64,000 nt of DNA from Phaeodactylibacter sp. (GTDB lineage: Bacteria; Bacteroidota; Bacteroidia; Chitinophagales; Saprospiraceae): contig NZ_JALEGS010000021.1 of assembly GCF_022763345.1 (NCBI RefSeq), forward strand, positions 35,083-99,082. Direction: 5' to 3'. Below the pieces are notes generated by a model that worked only from the letters and a program-made list of their open reading frames with translations, did no database searches and was not told where the DNA came from. A program made the translations under genes and the position numbers. The number at the start of each line of letters is the position of its first letter. The first letter of the stretch is position 1. Positions 2-64,000 of this stretch are shown piece by piece.

Positions 2-910
2 ATCAAAGTGTTCCGCAAAAACAAGGAAGGCCTACGCGGTACCTTCAAAGTGCTGGGGCAGATTGGATTAGGGCTATTGATTGCTCTGACGATGATCCAC
101 AGTGAAGACATCGTAGTTCGCCTTGAAGTAGACGAAGCAGCCGAGTTGGGATATACCGAAATGGTGGGTGATACCATCCACGTCCCCGCAGACCTGGCCT
201 ACGTTGGGCCTGCGGAAAAAGGCGATTACAAAGCCAACCTGACCAACGTCCCCTTCCTTAAAGGCAATCGCCTGGATTATGCCTGGCTGATGCCGATTCA
301 GGAGCCTTCTGCCTCGCGCTGGGTATGGTTGTTGTTTGTGCCGCTGGTCATTTTCGTGGTCACCGCGGTTTCCAACGCTGCCAACCTTACGGATGGGCTG
401 GATGGACTGGCTACGGGCGTTTCTGGTATCATTGGTGCAGCACTCGGCATTTTTGCCTACGTTTCGGGCAATGCCATTGCGGCCAACTACCTGAATATCC
501 TGCACCTCCCGGGCACCGGAGAGCTGGTGATTTTTGCGGCCTGCTTTGTGGGGGCGACCCTGGGCTTTTTGTGGTACAATTCCTTCCCTGCTCAGATTTT
601 CATGGGCGATACCGGGAGTTTGACCCTGGGTGGCATCATCGCTGCTATGGCCATTATCCTCCGTAAAGAGCTGCTAATCCCCCTGCTGTGCGGTATTTTC
701 CTGGTGGAAAACCTATCGGTGGTGCTGCAAGTCAGCTATTTCAAATACACCAAGCGCAAATACGGCGAAGGCCGGCGCATATTCCTGATGTCCCCCCTTC
801 ATCACCACTATCAGAAAAAAGGCATGCCGGAAGTGAAAATCGTCACCCGTTTCTGGATCATCGGTATCCTGCTGGCGGTATTGACGATCATCACGCTTAA
901 AATCCGGTAG
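2..910 (+). CDS. mraY: Phospho-N-acetylmuramoyl-pentapeptide transferase (5' truncated by window edge)
   Basis: [21 protein letters not shown] and SPLHHHYQ motifs, multiple TM helices; frame open to the window start; dcw context. Confidence 0.97.
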
Positions 911-13686: not shown

Positions 13687-16600
13687 TTATTGCTTGGTGA
13701 AGCGCAGCGTTTCCAGAATGCCGCTTTCGCCCTGTACTTCCAGGAAGTACATACCGGCAGGCAGAGCTGCCACATCAAGCTGAGTTTGTACAGCACCTGT
13801 CGCCACCTGCTGCTGACGGAGTGCCTGCCCAAACTGATTGCGTACGACTACGATGGTGTTGTGCTCTACCGCACGCTCGAAGCGCAGGTTCAGCGCATCA
13901 CGCGTCGGGTTCGGGAACAAGGTCGTATTGCGTACCTCCTGAGCCGGTACTTCAAAGGTAACTGCATTACCGTTTTGTGCTTCTGCACCGCGCTTGAGGC
14001 TGATGCCGTTGATCGCTTCCTGAACTTCCTCAGAAAGTGTAGGGATTGTATTGCCAAGCACTGTCACATTGCTAAATACCGCACTTGCAGGGGTGTTATT
14101 GACGGAGAAGACCACCATGCCTACCTCCACGCAGGCATCCATGGGTACGTAAGCGGCATTTACGAATGCGAAGCTGCCACCTGTGGTGCTGCTGTAGCCA
14201 ATAATGTAATCGCCCTGACGTACCAGGCGCAACCACCGTGGGAATGGCCGGTAGAAAGAGGTGAAGCTGCGGTTGGCATCCGTGTCATAACGGGTAGACC
14301 AGTAGATATTGCCGGTAATGTTGGTGAGCATGGTAACCATTTTGGCACCAGCTGCAGTACTTTCACGGATGGCAATGCCCGGGAATCCACCCTGACGGCT
14401 TTCTACCTTTATTGTAATGGACCCATCGCCACAGAGTTCCTGCGAAATAAACCCTGTATTGTCCGATACATCTTCCAGCGGGAAGTTGCGGCCTCCACTA
14501 GTGATCGCAAATTCACCATTATTGGCGTTGCACACCTCATAGCTAAATTCATTCTCGCCTTCGCCTACATCGCTGGCACCCCATGGTGCAGGCAGTTCAC
14601 CAGACTCATCAACTACAGTGATGTTGGAGGTACAGCTCTGTGGACCTTCCGGCGTATTGACCATTACAGTCACCATGACGGTTTGGCCAAGGTCATCACA
14701 AGTCAGCGTGGCTGGGCTGATCATGCCGAGTGTAATTTCGGGGCAATCAGATGGGTTGTCCTGATTGTCGATGTTTACCACGTCTGCTTCAGAAAGGCTG
14801 TAAGAACCAAAGTCGAGCAGTACATCATTGTCCACGCACTCGAAAGTAGGATCTTCGCAGCAGTCCACATCCGCATTAGCGCCGCCCTTGGTGTTCTGGC
14901 AGGTCTCGGTCCACACGCCGTCAATCAACTGCAGGGAGCCTTCTTCCGGTGTGCCGCCACCTTCGGTAACCCCTACGTCGGTGCTGGCAAAGCCATTAAC
15001 AGTCATATCGCCTTCGTAGCTCAACAGCTGGAAAATCTCATTATTGCACTCCAGTGCGATACCGTCAGGTGCGCCGTTTTGCAGGGAGCTGAACTCGAAA
15101 TAGTAGTAGGTTATACCGCTGGCGGTGCTGCCTTCGCTGAAGTTGTCAAGGGTTTCGCTATCGTAGGAGGTGTTGTTGCTGCCATTGTAGAGCACCACTT
15201 CAATACCGGATAAATCGCCCTCAAATTCGTTTGAAACCGCTACTTCCACAAACTCATTGACGTCGCCGCCAACGTTATCGTAGTGGAATTCGCTGATGAA
15301 GATGTCCTCTGATGTTGGGCAGGAGACACACTCGGGTACACGGAAGTAGTAAGTTGGCGTTCTGCAAGTAACATCCATCTGATCGAGCAGGTCGATTTTT
15401 GCTACTTCACCCGGAGTGTTACCGGTGATGCTGGCCTGACCGGTTCCAGATATAGTACCGTTTTCTACACCTGAGAAGATGCCATATCCGATACTTGTTT
15501 CAGGATTGATATTTAAATAGGAGCCTGAGCCATTGGATACAACTGCAGATACATCAAAAAAGGAGCTTTCTGCAAATGCGCCCGTTCCGCATGACAGGTT
15601 GGAGAAGGAAACATTGGTGAAGCCGCAGCCTCCGCCAGTACTACCGCCACCTCCGCCAGTGCTGCCACAACCGTCAAAGGTATGAGCCCCAAAGCCATCA
15701 GCTGTATTCTGAGGGAACTCGTCCCATTCTGCGGAAATATCGAAGGCATCACTGCCGTTTGTATCTCCAGAAGTCACACTAGATTTTCGGCGGTAAGTTC
15801 TGTCTTTGGCGAAGTTGGAATCGTTTCCGATTTGTCCGAAGATATCCAATGTTGTCCCGTCTGCTCTGAGCTCTACAGCATCGTTACCATTGAAAAAAGA
15901 AGCAGTAGACTCTTGGTCTACCTCTATCTCCAAAGTGGTACCGTCATCACAAAGGGTGTAAGTGGTGCCTGCGGAGACAGTACCTGTGAGGTTGATGGTA
16001 CCACCTACGGTAGTGTTATCATTGAAATAGAACAAAATCTGATAATTACCAGCATTCAGGTCAATAGATGAACTGGTTGGGTTAAAAACTTCAATACATT
16101 TGTTGTTGCCACTACCTTCCATGTACTCAGAAATGAACAGGTCGTCACAACCGCTTACCGGTGCGGATGGCATCATTGGCGTACCCGCAGTAGGTGTATT
16201 GTCATTGCCCAAGTTAAAGTCACTGATGACCCAGTCACTGGCCATGTCGGTGTCTACGCCATCCGTTACACGGCGTACGCCGGCTGGAAAGAAATTGCCA
16301 TCTGGGCCAATAACCGGGGCATCAAAGTAAAAGAATTCAGGGGATTCTTCATCGGTAAGTGCCACCACATCCCTCCAGAATTCACCACCGGTGATGCTGG
16401 AACCAGAAATACTGCTGGTCACAACCAGCCCATAGGTAGCGCTACTGTTTTCCAGGGAGTTAGAGTTGATGATTTTATTTGGCATTACTCCGTATTCGGA
16501 GTTGACACTTGAAGTGCCAATCAGGTAGAATCCGTTCGAACCAATTATGTCGTCAGCTCCAAAGTCAAATCGAAAATCAATAGAGCCATTGGAGGATTGG

Positions 16601-43542: not shown

Positions 43543-43995
43543 ATGAGAATCCTTCAGTTTATAGTTGCCCTGACCATCATCACCACCGCCTTTTCCTGCT
43601 CAGATTATGCCCGTCTGGAACGCAAAGAAGACCGCCTCATTGGCGTATGGGAATTTGATAAAGCTTTCTACCGGGGCCATGGGCAAATTTTCCGCGACAA
43701 CGTCATCGATCAGTTCAACGGAGACATCATCGAATTCTACGAAGACTACACCGCAATTTACGATGACTACAGCGAAGGCATCGTCTACGCCGGGGAATGG
43801 GAGCTCTTCTTCGACCGCCAATGGGAAGGTGATGATACAGACATCGAGTTCTTCCTGGATATGTACTTCTTTGACCCTTACGGCCAGGAGTCTTTTGCCT
43901 ACTTCACCTGCGTGAACCTGATTACGAGAAATAAGCTGCACGTCCAGGCCCGTACCCGTCATGGTTTGTATACTTTTAAGTTTCGGCGGTTGTAA
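43543..43995 (+). CDS. Lipoprotein, lipocalin-like domain
   Basis: SPII signal (TAFS-C), LIGVW motif, Y.GEW motif, beta-rich. Confidence 0.7.
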   Translation: MRILQFIVALTIITTAFSCSDYARLERKEDRLIGVWEFDKAFYRGHGQIFRDNVIDQFNGDIIEFYEDYTAIYDDYSEGIVYAGEWELFFDRQWEGDDTDIEFFLDMYFFDPYGQESFAYFTCVNLITRNKLHVQARTRHGLYTFKFRRL

Positions 43996-44133
43996 GCATA
44001 TGAGGGGGCCATGCACCACTGCCTCTACACCCAAGCCAATTTCCCCTCATTCAGCTCTGGCTCCCCGTCAAACCGGTAAGTTAGGGTAGAGCACTCAAGC
44101 CGGTAAGTTCCGGAGGCTATTCACTATCTTCGG

Positions 44134-44278
44134 GCTGTCGGGCTCGCAGTCGATGTAGTTCCTAACAAACATGACTTTGCTGGGTGGGGTGGCGGTAAGC
44201 ACCGTTTTTGCGCTCATAGCCAAGCTTGCGGAGTAGGACTTTCAGGCGGTCAGAGTGACCGTATATGTCGCCGATGAG
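44134..44278 (+). ncRNA. Flavo-1-like structured non-coding RNA
   Basis: gatgtagttcctaacaaacat, gtggcggtaagcaccgtttttg and ttcaggcgg match my recollection of the Flavo-1 motif; folds as a rod (ggcggt/accgtt, gggtg/cgctc, gct/agc, ctt/aag); tatcttcg promoter-like box at 44125. Confidence 0.6.
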
Positions 44279-44523
44279 GTCTTGTGGGGGGGGATATTTA
44301 AATAAGTTTGCTCGAAAAGGCTATTGTGGTGTCCAGTTGGTTTTTCCTTGATTTTTTAGTTTGTTCACTATTCTTGAGCGTCCATTATTCCTGAGAAAAA
44401 ACAGCTCCTTCCGACAGTCGGAAGGTTTTGAAAAGGAAGCAGCCACTATAGCTGAGTTTTTCCGAGTGGAAATTCAGCTATCCCCTATTGCTGATTACTG
44501 TTGCAGATGGAGGCAGTGGCTAA

Positions 44524-60816: not shown

Positions 60817-61968
60817 TTGTCTATGATCAAAACCCTCAAAACGTTCGCGTTTCATATGCCCAGCCTTTCAGTGGGGCTGACTTTTTTTACACTGAGTATG
60901 CTTTTTGGCAGCTGGCTGGCCCGGTTGCCTGAGGTGCAGGCCCGTTTGATGTTGTCTGAGGGGCAGCTTGGGCTGGCGCTTCTGGGCCTTCCAGTTGGGG
61001 CACTGCTCATGATGCCGCTGGCCGGATGGCTTTCCGCCCGGTTGAGCAGCGGGCAGGCGATGACGCTTTCCACTTTGCTCTTCTGTGGCGTATTTCCGCT
61101 GCCTGCCTTCGCACAGGGGCCCTACAGTTTGTTCGCCGGGCTACTGCTTATCGGCTTCGTGAACAGCTTTATGAATATTTCCATGAATGCGGCAGCGGCA
61201 GCGGTTGAACGCCATTACCACATCGCCATAATGTCGGTTTGCCACGGTATGTTCAGCCTGGGAGCGATGGTCGGGGCTGGGAGTTCCGGCCTCATTGCCT
61301 CTCTTGGGGTTTCTCTTCAGGTACACCTGATCACGGTTGCACTTCTGATGGTAGGCTTGCACCTGCTATTGCGCCCGGTCATCCATTCTCTGCCCAGTGC
61401 ACCCGCGGAGAATAATGGCCTTTCGATACCACCCCGTGCGTTACTGGGGCTTGCTTTCATCGGTTTTTGCATTATGATTGGAGAAGGGGCGATTGCCGAC
61501 TGGAGTGCCATTTTCCTCCGCAAGGAACTGCAGGCGGGCCCGTTTATTGCCGGGCTGGCCTATGCCGGATTTTCTATGGCGATGGCTATTGGCCGCTTTA
61601 TGGGCGATGGTATCCGCTTGCAGCTGGGGCTGGGCAAGGCTGTTACCATGGGCAGCCTGTTAGGAGCTGCCGGGCTTTTGCTGGCTATTTTGGCACCATT
61701 GCCATCGCTGTCAGTACTCGGTTTTACAATCGTGGGGCTTGGTTTCTCCACGGTGGTGCCTCTGCTGTTTAGCGCTGCGGCAAATACGCCCGGCGTGAGT
61801 GCAGGCAACGGTATCGCTGCAGTGGCGAGCTCAGGGGTCATCGGCTTTCTGGTCGCTCCCCCCCTGATCGGGTTGATCAGCGACCACTTTGGGCTGGCGC
61901 TGGGACTGGGTTTTGTGGTGGTCCTGGCTGTTCTGGCCTCTGTAACCGCTCGTGGTATAAAGGCTTAA
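60817..61968 (+). CDS. MFS transporter (YbjJ-like)
   Basis: About 12 TM segments, W.ARLP, MN..AAAVE, HGMFSLG, EGAIADWS, GRFMGD. Confidence 0.9.
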   Translation: MSMIKTLKTFAFHMPSLSVGLTFFTLSMLFGSWLARLPEVQARLMLSEGQLGLALLGLPVGALLMMPLAGWLSARLSSGQAMTLSTLLFCGVFPLPAFAQGPYSLFAGLLLIGFVNSFMNISMNAAAAAVERHYHIAIMSVCHGMFSLGAMVGAGSSGLIASLGVSLQVHLITVALLMVGLHLLLRPVIHSLPSAPAENNGLSIPPRALLGLAFIGFCIMIGEGAIADWSAIFLRKELQAGPFIAGLAYAGFSMAMAIGRFMGDGIRLQLGLGKAVTMGSLLGAAGLLLAILAPLPSLSVLGFTIVGLGFSTVVPLLFSAAANTPGVSAGNGIAAVASSGVIGFLVAPPLIGLISDHFGLALGLGFVVVLAVLASVTARGIKA

Positions 61969-61979
61969 GACTGCCTAAT

Positions 61980-63512
61980 CTATAACGCATTCAGCAGTGA
62001 GGTGTCAGACAGGGCACCCCACTGCAGGTCCGGGTCGTCAGCCAGGTGTGGGTATTGCCGTTTCAGGAACTGCGTGTACAAAGCTTCGCCATCCTGTGCA
62101 TTCCCCTTTTCCTGATCGCCAATACCGAAAAACCGGCGATTGTCCGACAGGTCGCAGAGGTGTACCTTGTCGAGAGACGTCTGGAAGTAGTTGTTCAGGG
62201 CATCCTCCAATGACCCGCGTATAGAGCTGGGAATAATACTTGGCAGCGGCTTGATGATAGCGTTCACCAGTACCCCCACTGCTTTTTTCGGGTAGAATTC
62301 GTCATTGAGGAAGTGGTCAACTTCCCGGAACCAGCCCTTTAGCAATTCTGTGATTTCTTCCCGGTTGAGGTTGATGTATTCCTCACTGGTCAGCAGTACA
62401 TCGGCGATGAGATTGGGGTAGTCGGAAGAGTCAGTCAGGACTTTGATGTCTCCGCAGCCTTCGGCAATGCAGGCTTCTACAAAGGGGCTCCACAGCACCA
62501 GTGCATCAAGGGTGTCGTCCTTTATGAAGCGTTTGGTGAGAAGGTCCAGGTCGGTGTGTTTTTGTGGAATGGCTTCCACTTCTTCTGTTTTTATCCCATG
62601 TTCCTGTAGCACATACTTCAGGAAAGTATGAGAAGGGGAGTCCTGAGGGTATAGGATGCGCTTGCCGCGGAGGTCGGCTACCGTTTCAATACGGCTCCTG
62701 GACAAAATGGCATCGGCACCGTTGGACCAGGAAGCCTGGTAGAAAACCTTGGGCGACCACTCCTTGATCTTATCGGCTACGTAGGGCAGGCGGTCGATCG
62801 TGCACCACATCATATCAATCTGCCCGGCTTTGAAGTCATCGCAAAGCTGATCGAGGTGGTCATTGAGCTCAAAGTGGACCTCGCGCCTGTACTTCTGGAA
62901 AAGTGGCGTATTTTCATTTCGGGCGAAGCCACCGTTGTACATGATGCTGGGTATGAAGCCGATCCAGGTAGGCAGGGCGATTTGTACGGATTTGGCATTA
63001 ATGCGGGCAATATATTCCTCCAGAGACTGAGCAATGCTTTCGTAGACTTTGCCCCGGTCCTTATCGGCTTCCGGCAGCTTGTCGAATACCCTAAGGTTCT
63101 CAATATCGAAATGCTGGTCGTAAATATCGTCCCAGCCATAAAGGTGGTTGAGCAGAATAGGCATAATGAAGCGCTCCTCTTTTCGGTAGGCATCGCTGTC
63201 GCTAAATCTGGCGTAGGTAGTCAGTAAGTCCCGTACTTCCTCGTCTACGATATCGTCGTTGACAAATTCAGGGCTAAAAAGTAGGAGCGTAATATCTGCC
63301 CGCTTGAGCTCATCCTTGAGCTGCCGCTCTACGGAGCCACCTATATCAATGTCAGTGGCAGTCCAGATGTGTACATTCGGGTAGCGGGCATTGATGCTGG
63401 TGAATTGCTTTTCCAGCTCTTCCCAGGCTTCCTGGTCGGCTTTGGCGTAAAGAACGGCAATGTGGATGTTGGTGCTGCGGTCCTGCGTCTCTGGTATCGG
63501 TTGTATGGGCAT
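61980..63512 (-). CDS. TIR domain fused to an NMT1/THI5-like solute-binding (PBP type II) domain; no signal peptide
   Basis: N-term IAVLYAKAD…IWTATDIDIGG…LKRADITLLLFSPEFVNDDIVDEEV…IMPILL; C-term TWIGF…YNGGF…SWSNGADAILSR…ADLRGKRI…SPSH…DALVLWSP…IADVL; ATG 63512 preferred over 63563. Confidence 0.75.
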   Translation of the reverse strand: MPIQPIPETQDRSTNIHIAVLYAKADQEAWEELEKQFTSINARYPNVHIWTATDIDIGGSVERQLKDELKRADITLLLFSPEFVNDDIVDEEVRDLLTTYARFSDSDAYRKEERFIMPILLNHLYGWDDIYDQHFDIENLRVFDKLPEADKDRGKVYESIAQSLEEYIARINAKSVQIALPTWIGFIPSIMYNGGFARNENTPLFQKYRREVHFELNDHLDQLCDDFKAGQIDMMWCTIDRLPYVADKIKEWSPKVFYQASWSNGADAILSRSRIETVADLRGKRILYPQDSPSHTFLKYVLQEHGIKTEEVEAIPQKHTDLDLLTKRFIKDDTLDALVLWSPFVEACIAEGCGDIKVLTDSSDYPNLIADVLLTSEEYINLNREEITELLKGWFREVDHFLNDEFYPKKAVGVLVNAIIKPLPSIIPSSIRGSLEDALNNYFQTSLDKVHLCDLSDNRRFFGIGDQEKGNAQDGEALYTQFLKRQYPHLADDPDLQWGALSDTSLLNAL

Positions 63513-63681
63513 AATTCTTAGTGTGTTGTGCTTTATTCGTAGTCTTAAAACGGCGAAAAGCAACGCTCGTTACGCTTTCAAGGGTTAAATTAAGACTTTT
63601 TTAATTTATCAGCAGATTGCCCTGAACTGTTACTGCCAAAGGATAGTTTTTTGATGCTTTCTCTACTGTCAGGTTGATAGG

Positions 63682-63999
63682 TTACTCTTTATCCCGTTCT
63701 GCCCGCTCGCTCAGGATTTCGACCAGCTTGAATAAAGTCTTTTGAAACTGTAGCACCTCCAGTTCCGTGAGCCGGCTGTCGTTGAAGGATTCGATGATCG
63801 TTTTGGGGATTTCCTCTGCTTCCGCTTTTAGCTGTGCGCCGGTTTCGGTGAGTTGGACCAGTACGCTGCGCTCGTCTTGAGAGGACCGCCTGCGGCTGAT
63901 GAGCCCTTTCTGCTCCAGGCGTTTGAGCAAAGGTGTGAGGGTATTGGATTCCAGGTAAAGACGGCTGCCAATTTGGTTGACGGTTTGCTTCCCGTGCTG
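63682..63999 (-). CDS. MarR family regulator, OhrR-like (5' truncated by window edge)
   Basis: IGSRLYLESNTLTPLLKRLEQKGLISRRRSSQDERSVLVQLT..G. Confidence 0.9.
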   Translation of the reverse strand, partial: QHGKQTVNQIGSRLYLESNTLTPLLKRLEQKGLISRRRSSQDERSVLVQLTETGAQLKAEAEEIPKTIIESFNDSRLTELEVLQFQKTLFKLVEILSERAERDKE

Positions 64000-64000
64000 C

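Follow-up and report, generated by a model that had tools for sequence, protein, structure and literature searches.

What is a TIR domain doing in front of a solute-binding domain, in a protein that carries no mark of export? The question is raised by a gene close to one end of a 64,000-nucleotide stretch of Phaeodactylibacter sp. DNA (NCBI RefSeq assembly GCF_022763345.1, contig NZ_JALEGS010000021.1, positions 35,083 to 99,082), which is referred to below as the window. The product of this gene, which we call TIR-PBP, joins an N-terminal TIR domain to a C-terminal class-II solute-binding domain of the periplasmic binding protein type (PBP-II). A first-pass annotation, made from the sequence alone, had read it as a cytoplasmic TIR protein with a ligand-binding gate, and thus as a candidate small-molecule-gated NADase or signalling protein. 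Our analysis bears out the architecture, and as to function we put forward tentatively, giving it a little less than an even chance, that TIR-PBP is a self-contained, ligand-regulated TIR protein that cleaves NAD(P)+ or makes a signal.

All of the motifs quoted in the first-pass annotation are present in the 510-residue protein (IAVLYAKAD, HIWTATDIDIGG, LKRADITLLLFSPEFVNDDIVDEEV, PTWIGF...NGGF, WCTID, SWSNGADAI, DLRGK, DSPSH, LWSP and LIADV), so that its observation is confirmed. Was it right to see a TIR fold in the N-terminus? Both profile searches and predicted structures say that it was. Pfam TIR_2 (PF13676) matches residues 18-98 with 28.8 bits in the whole protein and 31.9 bits in the isolated N-terminus, the gathering cut-off being 28, and the same profile matches the N-terminal parts of all 21 homologues tested. 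The PADLOC profile for ThsB (ThsB1) matches the fusion protein at 1.5e-7, and there is a weak match to Pfam ThsB_TIR. When the N-terminal domain was modelled alone with AlphaFold2 (predicted local confidence, pLDDT, of 64), the order of its strands and helices fitted that of a TIR domain (betaA-alphaA-betaB-BB loop-alphaB-betaC-alphaC), and nearly all of the top 25 PDB matches found for this model with Foldseek were TIR domains, including those of TLR1, AbTir, SPARTA TIR-APAZ, TLR10, MAL, BtpA, L6, MyD88 and SARM1. Of these, AbTir, SPARTA TIR-APAZ and SARM1 are known NADases. The target-normalised TM-score against AbTir (7uxu) reached up to 0.73. Additionally, a profile of the family's N-terminal domain placed TIR chains at ranks 1-3 among PDB sequences, weakly (E 0.23-0.7).

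The C-terminal domain, which had been taken for a complete PBP-II domain, turned out to be one. Pfam NMT1 matches residues 270-392 with 36.7 bits against a cut-off of 20.5, Phosphonate-bd and NMT1_2 match weakly, and NCBIfam SsuA_fam gives an E-value of 1e-13 at 51 bits, which is far under its trusted cut-off of 163.5. The PDB sequence search returned Escherichia coli SsuA (2x26) at 4.8e-8; alignments by sequence to SsuA and TauA span part of the domain. An AlphaFold2 model of the full protein, built on 34 homologues (mean pLDDT 80.8, pTM 0.77), has confidence values mostly above 90 from residue ~175 to ~505. In Foldseek searches this model matched TauA (8e-16), SsuA, Thi5 and ThiY at E-values of 1e-16 to 1e-12, and also PqqT and the C-terminal regulatory domain of the cyanobacterial ATPase CmpC (9uak, 9uai, 9u9z_C), which resembles a solute-binding protein and which we take to be a cytoplasmic sensor. 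The resemblance to Thi5 is at the level of the fold, with 13-14% identity, and the closest relatives are transporter proteins. Homologues, where they are named in source databases, are called "ABC transporter substrate-binding protein"; for the TIR-PBP family that public name is a mislabel.

If the N-terminal domain is an enzyme, then the residue of greatest interest is Glu92, which lies 12 residues past Ser80, the canonical spacing for the catalytic Glu of TIR NADases. The first-pass annotation had picked out a Glu at this place and asked that it be conserved, as it is: Glu92 is invariant in all 34 clusters of the alignment (44-96% identity), and in a profile alignment it falls on the presumed catalytic Glu of 7uwg, a TIR chain from Acinetobacter. 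The adjoining position 91 is occupied by 10 different residues among the 34 members, so the conservation of Glu92 is specific to that position. The invariant residues of the TIR domain also include D26, W50, G58 in the BB loop, D73, S80, R94, R114, W127 and D132, and the divergent homologue P0039 keeps Glu at the position of Glu92. Between the window's gene and its 96%-identical orthologue, the ratio of nonsynonymous to synonymous substitution rates (dN/dS) is 0.029 for the whole gene, 0.021 for the TIR domain and 0.034 for the PBP domain (dS 0.67). Values this low in each domain argue that both are functional, and on this measure TIR and PBP are each under strong purifying selection.

Where in the cell would such a protein work? 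No signal peptide, lipobox or transmembrane helix was found in 38 members of the family, and no hydrophobic segment, whether N-terminal or internal, that could serve as a signal or a membrane helix. Within the first 60 residues, the highest Kyte-Doolittle mean over 19 residues stays under 1.0 in every one of the 38, as against 1.6-2.7 in exported relatives; the most hydrophobic segment of the protein, AVGVLVNAIIKPLPSIIPS, holds a Lys and three Pro and is part of the PBP domain. Since, in addition, the alphaE helix of the TIR domain is predicted to lead straight into beta1 of the PBP domain, the whole protein is cytoplasmic, as had been claimed from its lack of a transmembrane helix or signal peptide. 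The coordinates of the gene, its parts and its neighbours are collected in Table 1.

Table 1. Coordinates within the window of the TIR-PBP gene, its domains and motifs, and the adjoining genes
Feature	Residues	Position in window	Strand	Remarks	Basis
Whole TIR-PBP fusion gene (P0001)	510 aa	61980..63512	minus	ATG start, stop included; protein begins MPIQPIPETQ	Open reading frame list and translation
TIR domain	~14-173	62994..63473	minus		Pfam TIR_2, ThsB_TIR; PADLOC ThsB; AlphaFold2 and Foldseek
Elements of the TIR domain	betaA 16-22; BB-loop Gly58; betaC 74-79; alphaC from ~87-91; alphaE 150-173			alphaE long
Glu92 codon	92	63237..63239	minus	Position of the catalytic Glu in TIR NADases (S80 + 12)	34-member alignment
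Family-specific acidic motif within TIR	127-144	63081..63134	minus	W127-D-D-I-Y-D-x-x-F-D-I-E-x-L-x-x-F-D144	Alignment
PBP-II (Venus-flytrap) domain, SsuA/TauA/NMT1 class	~175-505	61998..62990	minus		Pfam NMT1; NCBIfam SsuA_fam; PDB SsuA 2x26; AlphaFold2 and Foldseek
PLPxIIP insertion (P-L-P-x-I-I-P) in PBP	422-428	62229..62249	minus	TIR-fused form only	Alignment
OhrR-like MarR regulator		63682..64000	minus	Upstream, co-oriented, cut by window end	Pfam and NCBIfam scans
MFS transporter		60823..61968	plus	Convergent, tail-to-tail, 11 bp from TIR-PBP stop	Orthologue annotated MFS_1

One further feature of the TIR domain is the acidic motif listed in the table, in which W127, D132 and L140 never vary and D136 is found in 33 of the 34 members; AlphaFold2 confidence is low in this region.

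From what kind of protein was the sensor-like half taken? The closest relatives of the PBP domain are exported proteins of ~515-560 residues, which consist of an N-terminal membrane anchor, a PBP domain and a C-terminal, peptidoglycan-binding OmpA domain (PBP-OmpA proteins). Their identity to TIR-PBP is 28-36% from residue ~175 to residue ~505, a span that takes in the C-terminal helical part. They are envelope-anchored proteins that bind solutes for ABC importers of the NitT/TauT type, and they occur in 112 of the 168 genera of the family and also in other orders. The likeness to exported NMT1-like/OmpA fusions that had been noticed from the sequence was therefore well judged, and extends to common pocket-type motifs. 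We compared the positions conserved to at least 90% in the TIR-fused form (16 sequences) with those of 40 exported PBP-OmpA proteins. T182, W183, G185, N193, G195, D218, T238, D240, W262, S263 and G265 are common to both sets, as are D267, P293, W341, S342, P343, D371, N458, F461, F462 and W498. Specific to the TIR-fused form are Ser261, which is Asp in the relatives, and Ala266, which is Gly in the relatives; these are two changes in the most conserved loop of the pocket (SWSxGAD versus DWSxGGD), and because of them a shifted ligand specificity is suggested. The PLPxIIP insertion is conserved to 94-100% per position in the 16 fused proteins, and the same columns are 95-100% gaps in the 40 exported relatives. 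In a quick maximum-likelihood search the PBP domains of the 16 fused proteins formed one clade (SH-aLRT 99), placed beside the PBP-OmpA groups and distant from SsuA-like outgroups; the two fused forms that diverge furthest sat unresolved on long branches. The tree thus points to a single origin of the fusion.

As to the ligand, the exported paralogues should bind one related to that of TIR-PBP. The pyrimidine- or nucleotide-like metabolite suggested in the first-pass annotation gains no specific support, the PBP domain falling in the PBP-OmpA and not in the ThiY/Thi5 subfamily, and a cationic or amine ligand, to which three invariant Trp and three invariant Asp could point, is speculation. Given the algal-associated hosts, what is sensed might be a compound of the phycosphere, from the class that NitT/TauT systems import.

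Several observations were made on the relatives of the PBP domain themselves. In the one PBP-OmpA operon that was examined in full (G121), the companion genes encode a coiled-coil protein, a PspA/IM30-like protein and the permease and ATPase of an ABC system; both there (L026 5470-10394, G121:C4) and in a second genome (L027 6219-9576, G589:C1) the PBP-OmpA gene follows genes for a coiled-coil protein of ~220-236 residues and a PspA/IM30-like membrane protein of ~337 residues, and in G121 the permease and ATPase genes come after it. In two metagenomic proteins, P0069 (863 residues) and P0115 (856 residues), PBP-OmpA stands behind a transmembrane helix and a cytoplasmic caspase (Peptidase_C14) or AAA_35/STAND-like NTPase domain. 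They look like transmembrane sensor-effectors with the solute-binding sensor on the envelope side, and because the same subfamily is joined to both caspase and AAA_35/STAND domains, this PBP appears to have been used repeatedly as a sensor. P0069 and P0115 resemble TIR-PBP in coupling that subfamily to cytoplasmic domains of the conflict-system type, although their PBP lies outside the membrane, a transmembrane helix separates the domains and OmpA is kept, whereas both domains of TIR-PBP are cytoplasmic. Compared with the exported PBP-OmpA proteins at large, TIR-PBP lacks the anchor and OmpA and has the SWSxGAD form of the pocket loop, together with the PLPxIIP insertion. Also, Prevotella Lak megaphages (e.g., MK250019.1 281006-281719) carry an unannotated homologue of the PBP alone, with 28-30% identity to residues 176-405 (E ~1e-22).

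How widespread is the fusion? A word-indexed search returned 33 clusters of full-length homologues (44-96% identity, ~490-520 residues), and when 1.84 billion representatives (50% clustering) were searched exhaustively with HMMER, about five full-length proteins came back (P0018, P0038, P0039, P0041 and P0042), the remaining matches in that collection being PBP-only or TIR-only. With the TIR region alone as the query, only the TIR-PBP family itself was recovered. Carriers include Phaeodactylibacter xiamenensis KD52 (96%), many Phaeodactylibacter metagenome-assembled genomes, Lewinella cohaerens DSM 23179 (46%) and metagenome-assembled genomes of Lewinellaceae and Saprospiraceae. In our genome samples the full-length form was present in 6 of 201 genomes of the family, one of these being a distant 30% form, and in the class sample (301 genomes) and the order sample (201 genomes) it was present in the window's genome alone. 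The fusion was not found in the plasmid and phage collections, where the matches were PBP-only. One genome of the same genus lacks TIR-PBP: synteny covers PIG-L, metallophosphatase, lipoprotein, AraC and MFS genes and ends exactly at the expected site of the gene. The family is thus restricted to a few marine Bacteroidota, namely Phaeodactylibacter, Lewinella and related Saprospiraceae, with losses. An assembly chimera was rejected, since isolates as well as over 20 metagenome-assembled genomes have the gene intact.

The surroundings of the gene were compared over ~26 loci, with the neighbours clustered. In the closest Phaeodactylibacter clade the order is a DoxX/MauE-like gene, glutathione peroxidase, OhrR-like MarR, TIR-PBP, convergent MFS, AraC, a lipoprotein gene and an LpxH-like metallophosphatase gene; in a second clade EF-G2 lies upstream of TIR-PBP; and in Lewinella-clade loci the upstream genes are DUF2851 and DUF554 and the downstream ones alpha/beta hydrolases. 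The neighbours (MFS, AraC, OhrR-like MarR, glutathione peroxidase, EF-G2, DUF554, DUF2851 and hydrolases) include no partner gene conserved across clades, and PADLOC gave weak generic matches only to the 10 neighbour proteins searched. A caution in the first-pass annotation, that the neighbours (MarR and MFS) are not defence genes, was correct; the OhrR-like MarR assignment scored 159.7 bits against a cut-off of 200, and adjacency to the MFS gene is retained in 9 Phaeodactylibacter-clade loci and not in Lewinella. A defence island or an operon partner was considered and rejected, since the contexts track phylogeny. TIR-PBP is a stand-alone chromosomal gene with housekeeping surroundings, vertically inherited.

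Upstream of TIR-PBP, on its strand and running past the end of the window, the MarR, glutathione peroxidase and DoxX/MauE-like membrane protein genes form a cluster of the oxidative-stress type (L008 3765-5143); this arrangement is conserved in the closest Phaeodactylibacter clade only. The gene for P0038, on an ENA contig (L034 2742-10857), lies between two Fic-domain genes and transposase fragments and is the sole member seen in a region rich in mobile elements. In one other genome (L030 6760-11004, G517:C29) a CHAT-nSTAND1-WD40 protein of the conflict-system type, 1414 residues long, is encoded 3.5 kb from TIR-PBP, an arrangement not conserved elsewhere. Other TIR proteins were encountered as well. 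The window's genome encodes a second TIR_2 protein of 265 residues, with a helical N-terminus followed by TIR (G000:C2 ~14014-14334; L005 1141-1938), and a third in a 914-residue open frame, composed of TIR, a long acidic linker and a putative TPR-like helical-repeat region (G000:C85 ~43972-44289; L007 1486-3318+). P0088 (1928 residues), P0118 (1921 residues) and P0170 (1119 residues) have four or five tandem TIR_2 domains, one of them together with EAD2 and one with a poly-gamma-glutamate hydrolase domain.

How might the two domains work together? We suggest that the cytoplasmic PBP would still bind a small metabolite, chemically of the kind bound by its exported relatives and with the specificity perhaps shifted by the changes in the pocket loop. 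Opening and closing of the flytrap would then alter TIR-TIR association, and association would build an active site around Glu92, as in other TIR enzymes. The assembled TIR domains would cleave NAD(P)+ or turn it into a signal derived from ADP-ribose; because there is no conserved partner gene, the simplest output would be consumption of NAD+ by TIR-PBP itself.

A number of observations weigh against this proposal. The TIR part of the AlphaFold2 models is moderately confident at best (pLDDT 40-80), and gating of a TIR domain by a PBP is proposed purely by analogy. At position 88, four residues before the Glu, canonical TIR domains have a Trp (WxxxE), a residue that matters for AbTir, SARM1 and the TIRs of plants; the 34 members have Ile (17), Val (16) or Leu (1). 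Among the divergent forms, P0038 has Gln at the Glu position while retaining the architecture, and P0041 (Asp-Glu, shifted by one position) and P0042 give no clean alignment there. No CD-NTase, pyrimidine cyclase, ThsA or other defence gene adjoins TIR-PBP in the ~26 loci, and the window's genome has no orthologue of the exported PBP-OmpA proteins. Of the earlier interpretation, then, the TIR fold, the lack of export and the conserved Glu stood, and the functional reading found no support, the context being housekeeping and vertical, the expected Trp being replaced and Gln standing in P0038.

Some of the same observations invite a different account, in which the TIR domain is not catalytic and serves for homotypic oligomerisation or as an adaptor module, as in TLR/MyD88, TIR-PBP being a metabolite-binding scaffold that acts by protein-protein interaction. 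The loss of the Trp in every one of the 34 members, the natural change of Glu to Gln in P0038 with the remainder conserved at 38% identity, the presence of the non-enzymatic TLR1, TLR10, MAL and MyD88 among the best Foldseek matches, and the housekeeping surroundings with vertical inheritance are all consistent with it. However, E92 and R94 are invariant in 34 clusters down to 44% identity next to a freely varying position 91, a pattern typical of a catalytic rather than a structural residue, and there is no conserved partner gene to act as a receiver of the signal; we consider this account unlikely, if by no means negligible. Could the protein instead be a metabolic enzyme of two domains, in which the PBP captures a nucleoside- or nucleotide-like substrate and delivers it to a TIR-like N-glycosidase, so that the PBP serves for delivery and not for allosteric gating? 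Such an enzyme would be akin to the TIR-related nucleoside deoxyribosyltransferase, LOG and CMP-glycosidase families. The structural matches of the NMT1/THI5 fold include the cytoplasmic enzymes Thi5 and DszB, the CMP N-glycosidase BcmB stands at rank 43 of the matches to the TIR model, and very low dN/dS with stable synteny is what one would expect of a metabolic gene. Yet the N-terminal domain fits TIR_2 proper and not the glycosidase families, the PBP is nearer to transporter binding proteins than to Thi5 or DszB, salvage and biosynthesis genes adjoin it in no lineage, and the family is patchy (6 of 201 family genomes) and lost in a congener, all of which makes this quite improbable.

A role like that of ThsB in Thoeris, in which the PBP senses the trigger and the TIR domain makes a second messenger of the cyclic ADP-ribose type that is read by an effector encoded elsewhere, appears to us very unlikely. 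The weak profile matches to ThsB_TIR and ThsB1 speak for it, and ThsB is likewise a TIR protein that acts on NAD+ upon sensing a trigger, but no ThsA, SLOG, Macro or SIR2 neighbour was found in the ~26 loci, and in the TIR signal systems of which we know, the genes of producer and receiver are adjacent. To our knowledge ThsB is always encoded beside ThsA and has no fused binding domain of the PBP kind, whereas TIR-PBP has such a domain and no ThsA nearby. Finally, that TIR-PBP is an ordinary exported ABC substrate-binding protein, its TIR match spurious or its start mis-called, is scarcely credible. It has in its favour the name that the source databases give to homologues. Against it are the TIR fold, confirmed independently by sequence and by structure, an N-terminal domain of 175 residues at dN/dS 0.02, the 38 members in which no export signal was found, and the lack of an adjoining ABC permease or ATPase gene in all loci examined. 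The sole possible extension, from an in-frame TTG at 63563 upstream of the ATG, would add 17 residues that are not hydrophobic and are shared with no homologue. An exported protein with a mis-called start is effectively refuted.

To what, then, should a ligand-regulated TIR-PBP be compared? Sensor-gated TIRs are already known: in TIR-STING and TIR-SAVED of CBASS and in PycTIR of Pycsar, an N-terminal TIR domain is followed, within one polypeptide, by a C-terminal small-molecule sensor, and binding of the ligand leads to TIR assembly and cleavage of NAD+. TIR-PBP has the same domain order and a Glu at the catalytic position. It differs in that its sensor is a class-II solute-binding domain and not STING, SAVED or a cyclic nucleotide-binding domain, and in that it has no adjoining CD-NTase or cyclase and lies outside defence islands, because of which its ligand is probably not a dedicated second messenger. 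Solute-binding folds that serve as sensors in the cytoplasm are also known, for instance the regulatory domain of NrtC/CmpC and the effector domains of LysR regulators. In the C-terminal domain of the NrtC/CmpC ATPases a solute-binding fold of the NrtA/CmpA type has similarly been relocated to the cytoplasm, where it senses the transported solute allosterically, although the output there is inhibition of transport within an ABC complex, whereas TIR-PBP has a TIR partner and no linked transporter.

Because the context of the gene is stable, chromosomal and not that of an island, such a protein is at least as likely to serve as a physiological switch that responds to a metabolite or stress, with a logic like that of SARM1, as in anti-phage abortive infection. 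By analogy, the proposed logic of TIR-PBP would be that of the animal protein SARM1, which stands alone, is inherited vertically and has its TIR NADase under the allosteric control of a non-immune domain that binds a metabolite; the SARM1 TIR domain is among the structural matches of the N-terminal model. TIR-PBP differs, however, in that its sensor domain is unrelated to the ARM domain, it has no octamer scaffold of SAM domains and the Trp ahead of the Glu is absent. The best reading is that the logic of TIR-PBP is closer to that of SARM1 or TIR-STING than to that of a defence-island gene. The narrower proposal, that TIR-PBP is a bacterial switch like SARM1 in which a cytoplasmic flytrap derived from a transporter reads an ordinary metabolite and licenses its TIR domain to consume NAD+ or to make a signal derived from ADP-ribose, is possible, though we regard it as doubtful.

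Ligand-gated TIR enzymes have a central role in the immunity of bacteria, plants and animals, and the gates known for TIR domains are second-messenger receptors (STING, SAVED and cyclic nucleotide-binding domains) or the ARM domain of SARM1. A full-text search of the literature found no paper describing a TIR domain fused to a solute-binding protein, and the survey of conflict systems by Kaur et al. (2020; PMC7159879) has transmembrane-plus-PBP and OmpA modules only. As a single gene for a protein of 510 residues, present in the cultured strains P. xiamenensis KD52 and L. cohaerens DSM 23179 and with one obvious residue to mutate, Glu92, TIR-PBP is tractable. If the proposal put forward here is true, TIR-PBP would present the first case of a TIR enzyme gated by a solute-binding fold, and hence a new class of sensor, and TIR chemistry in these bacteria would serve physiology, as a response to ordinary metabolites, rather than phage defence.

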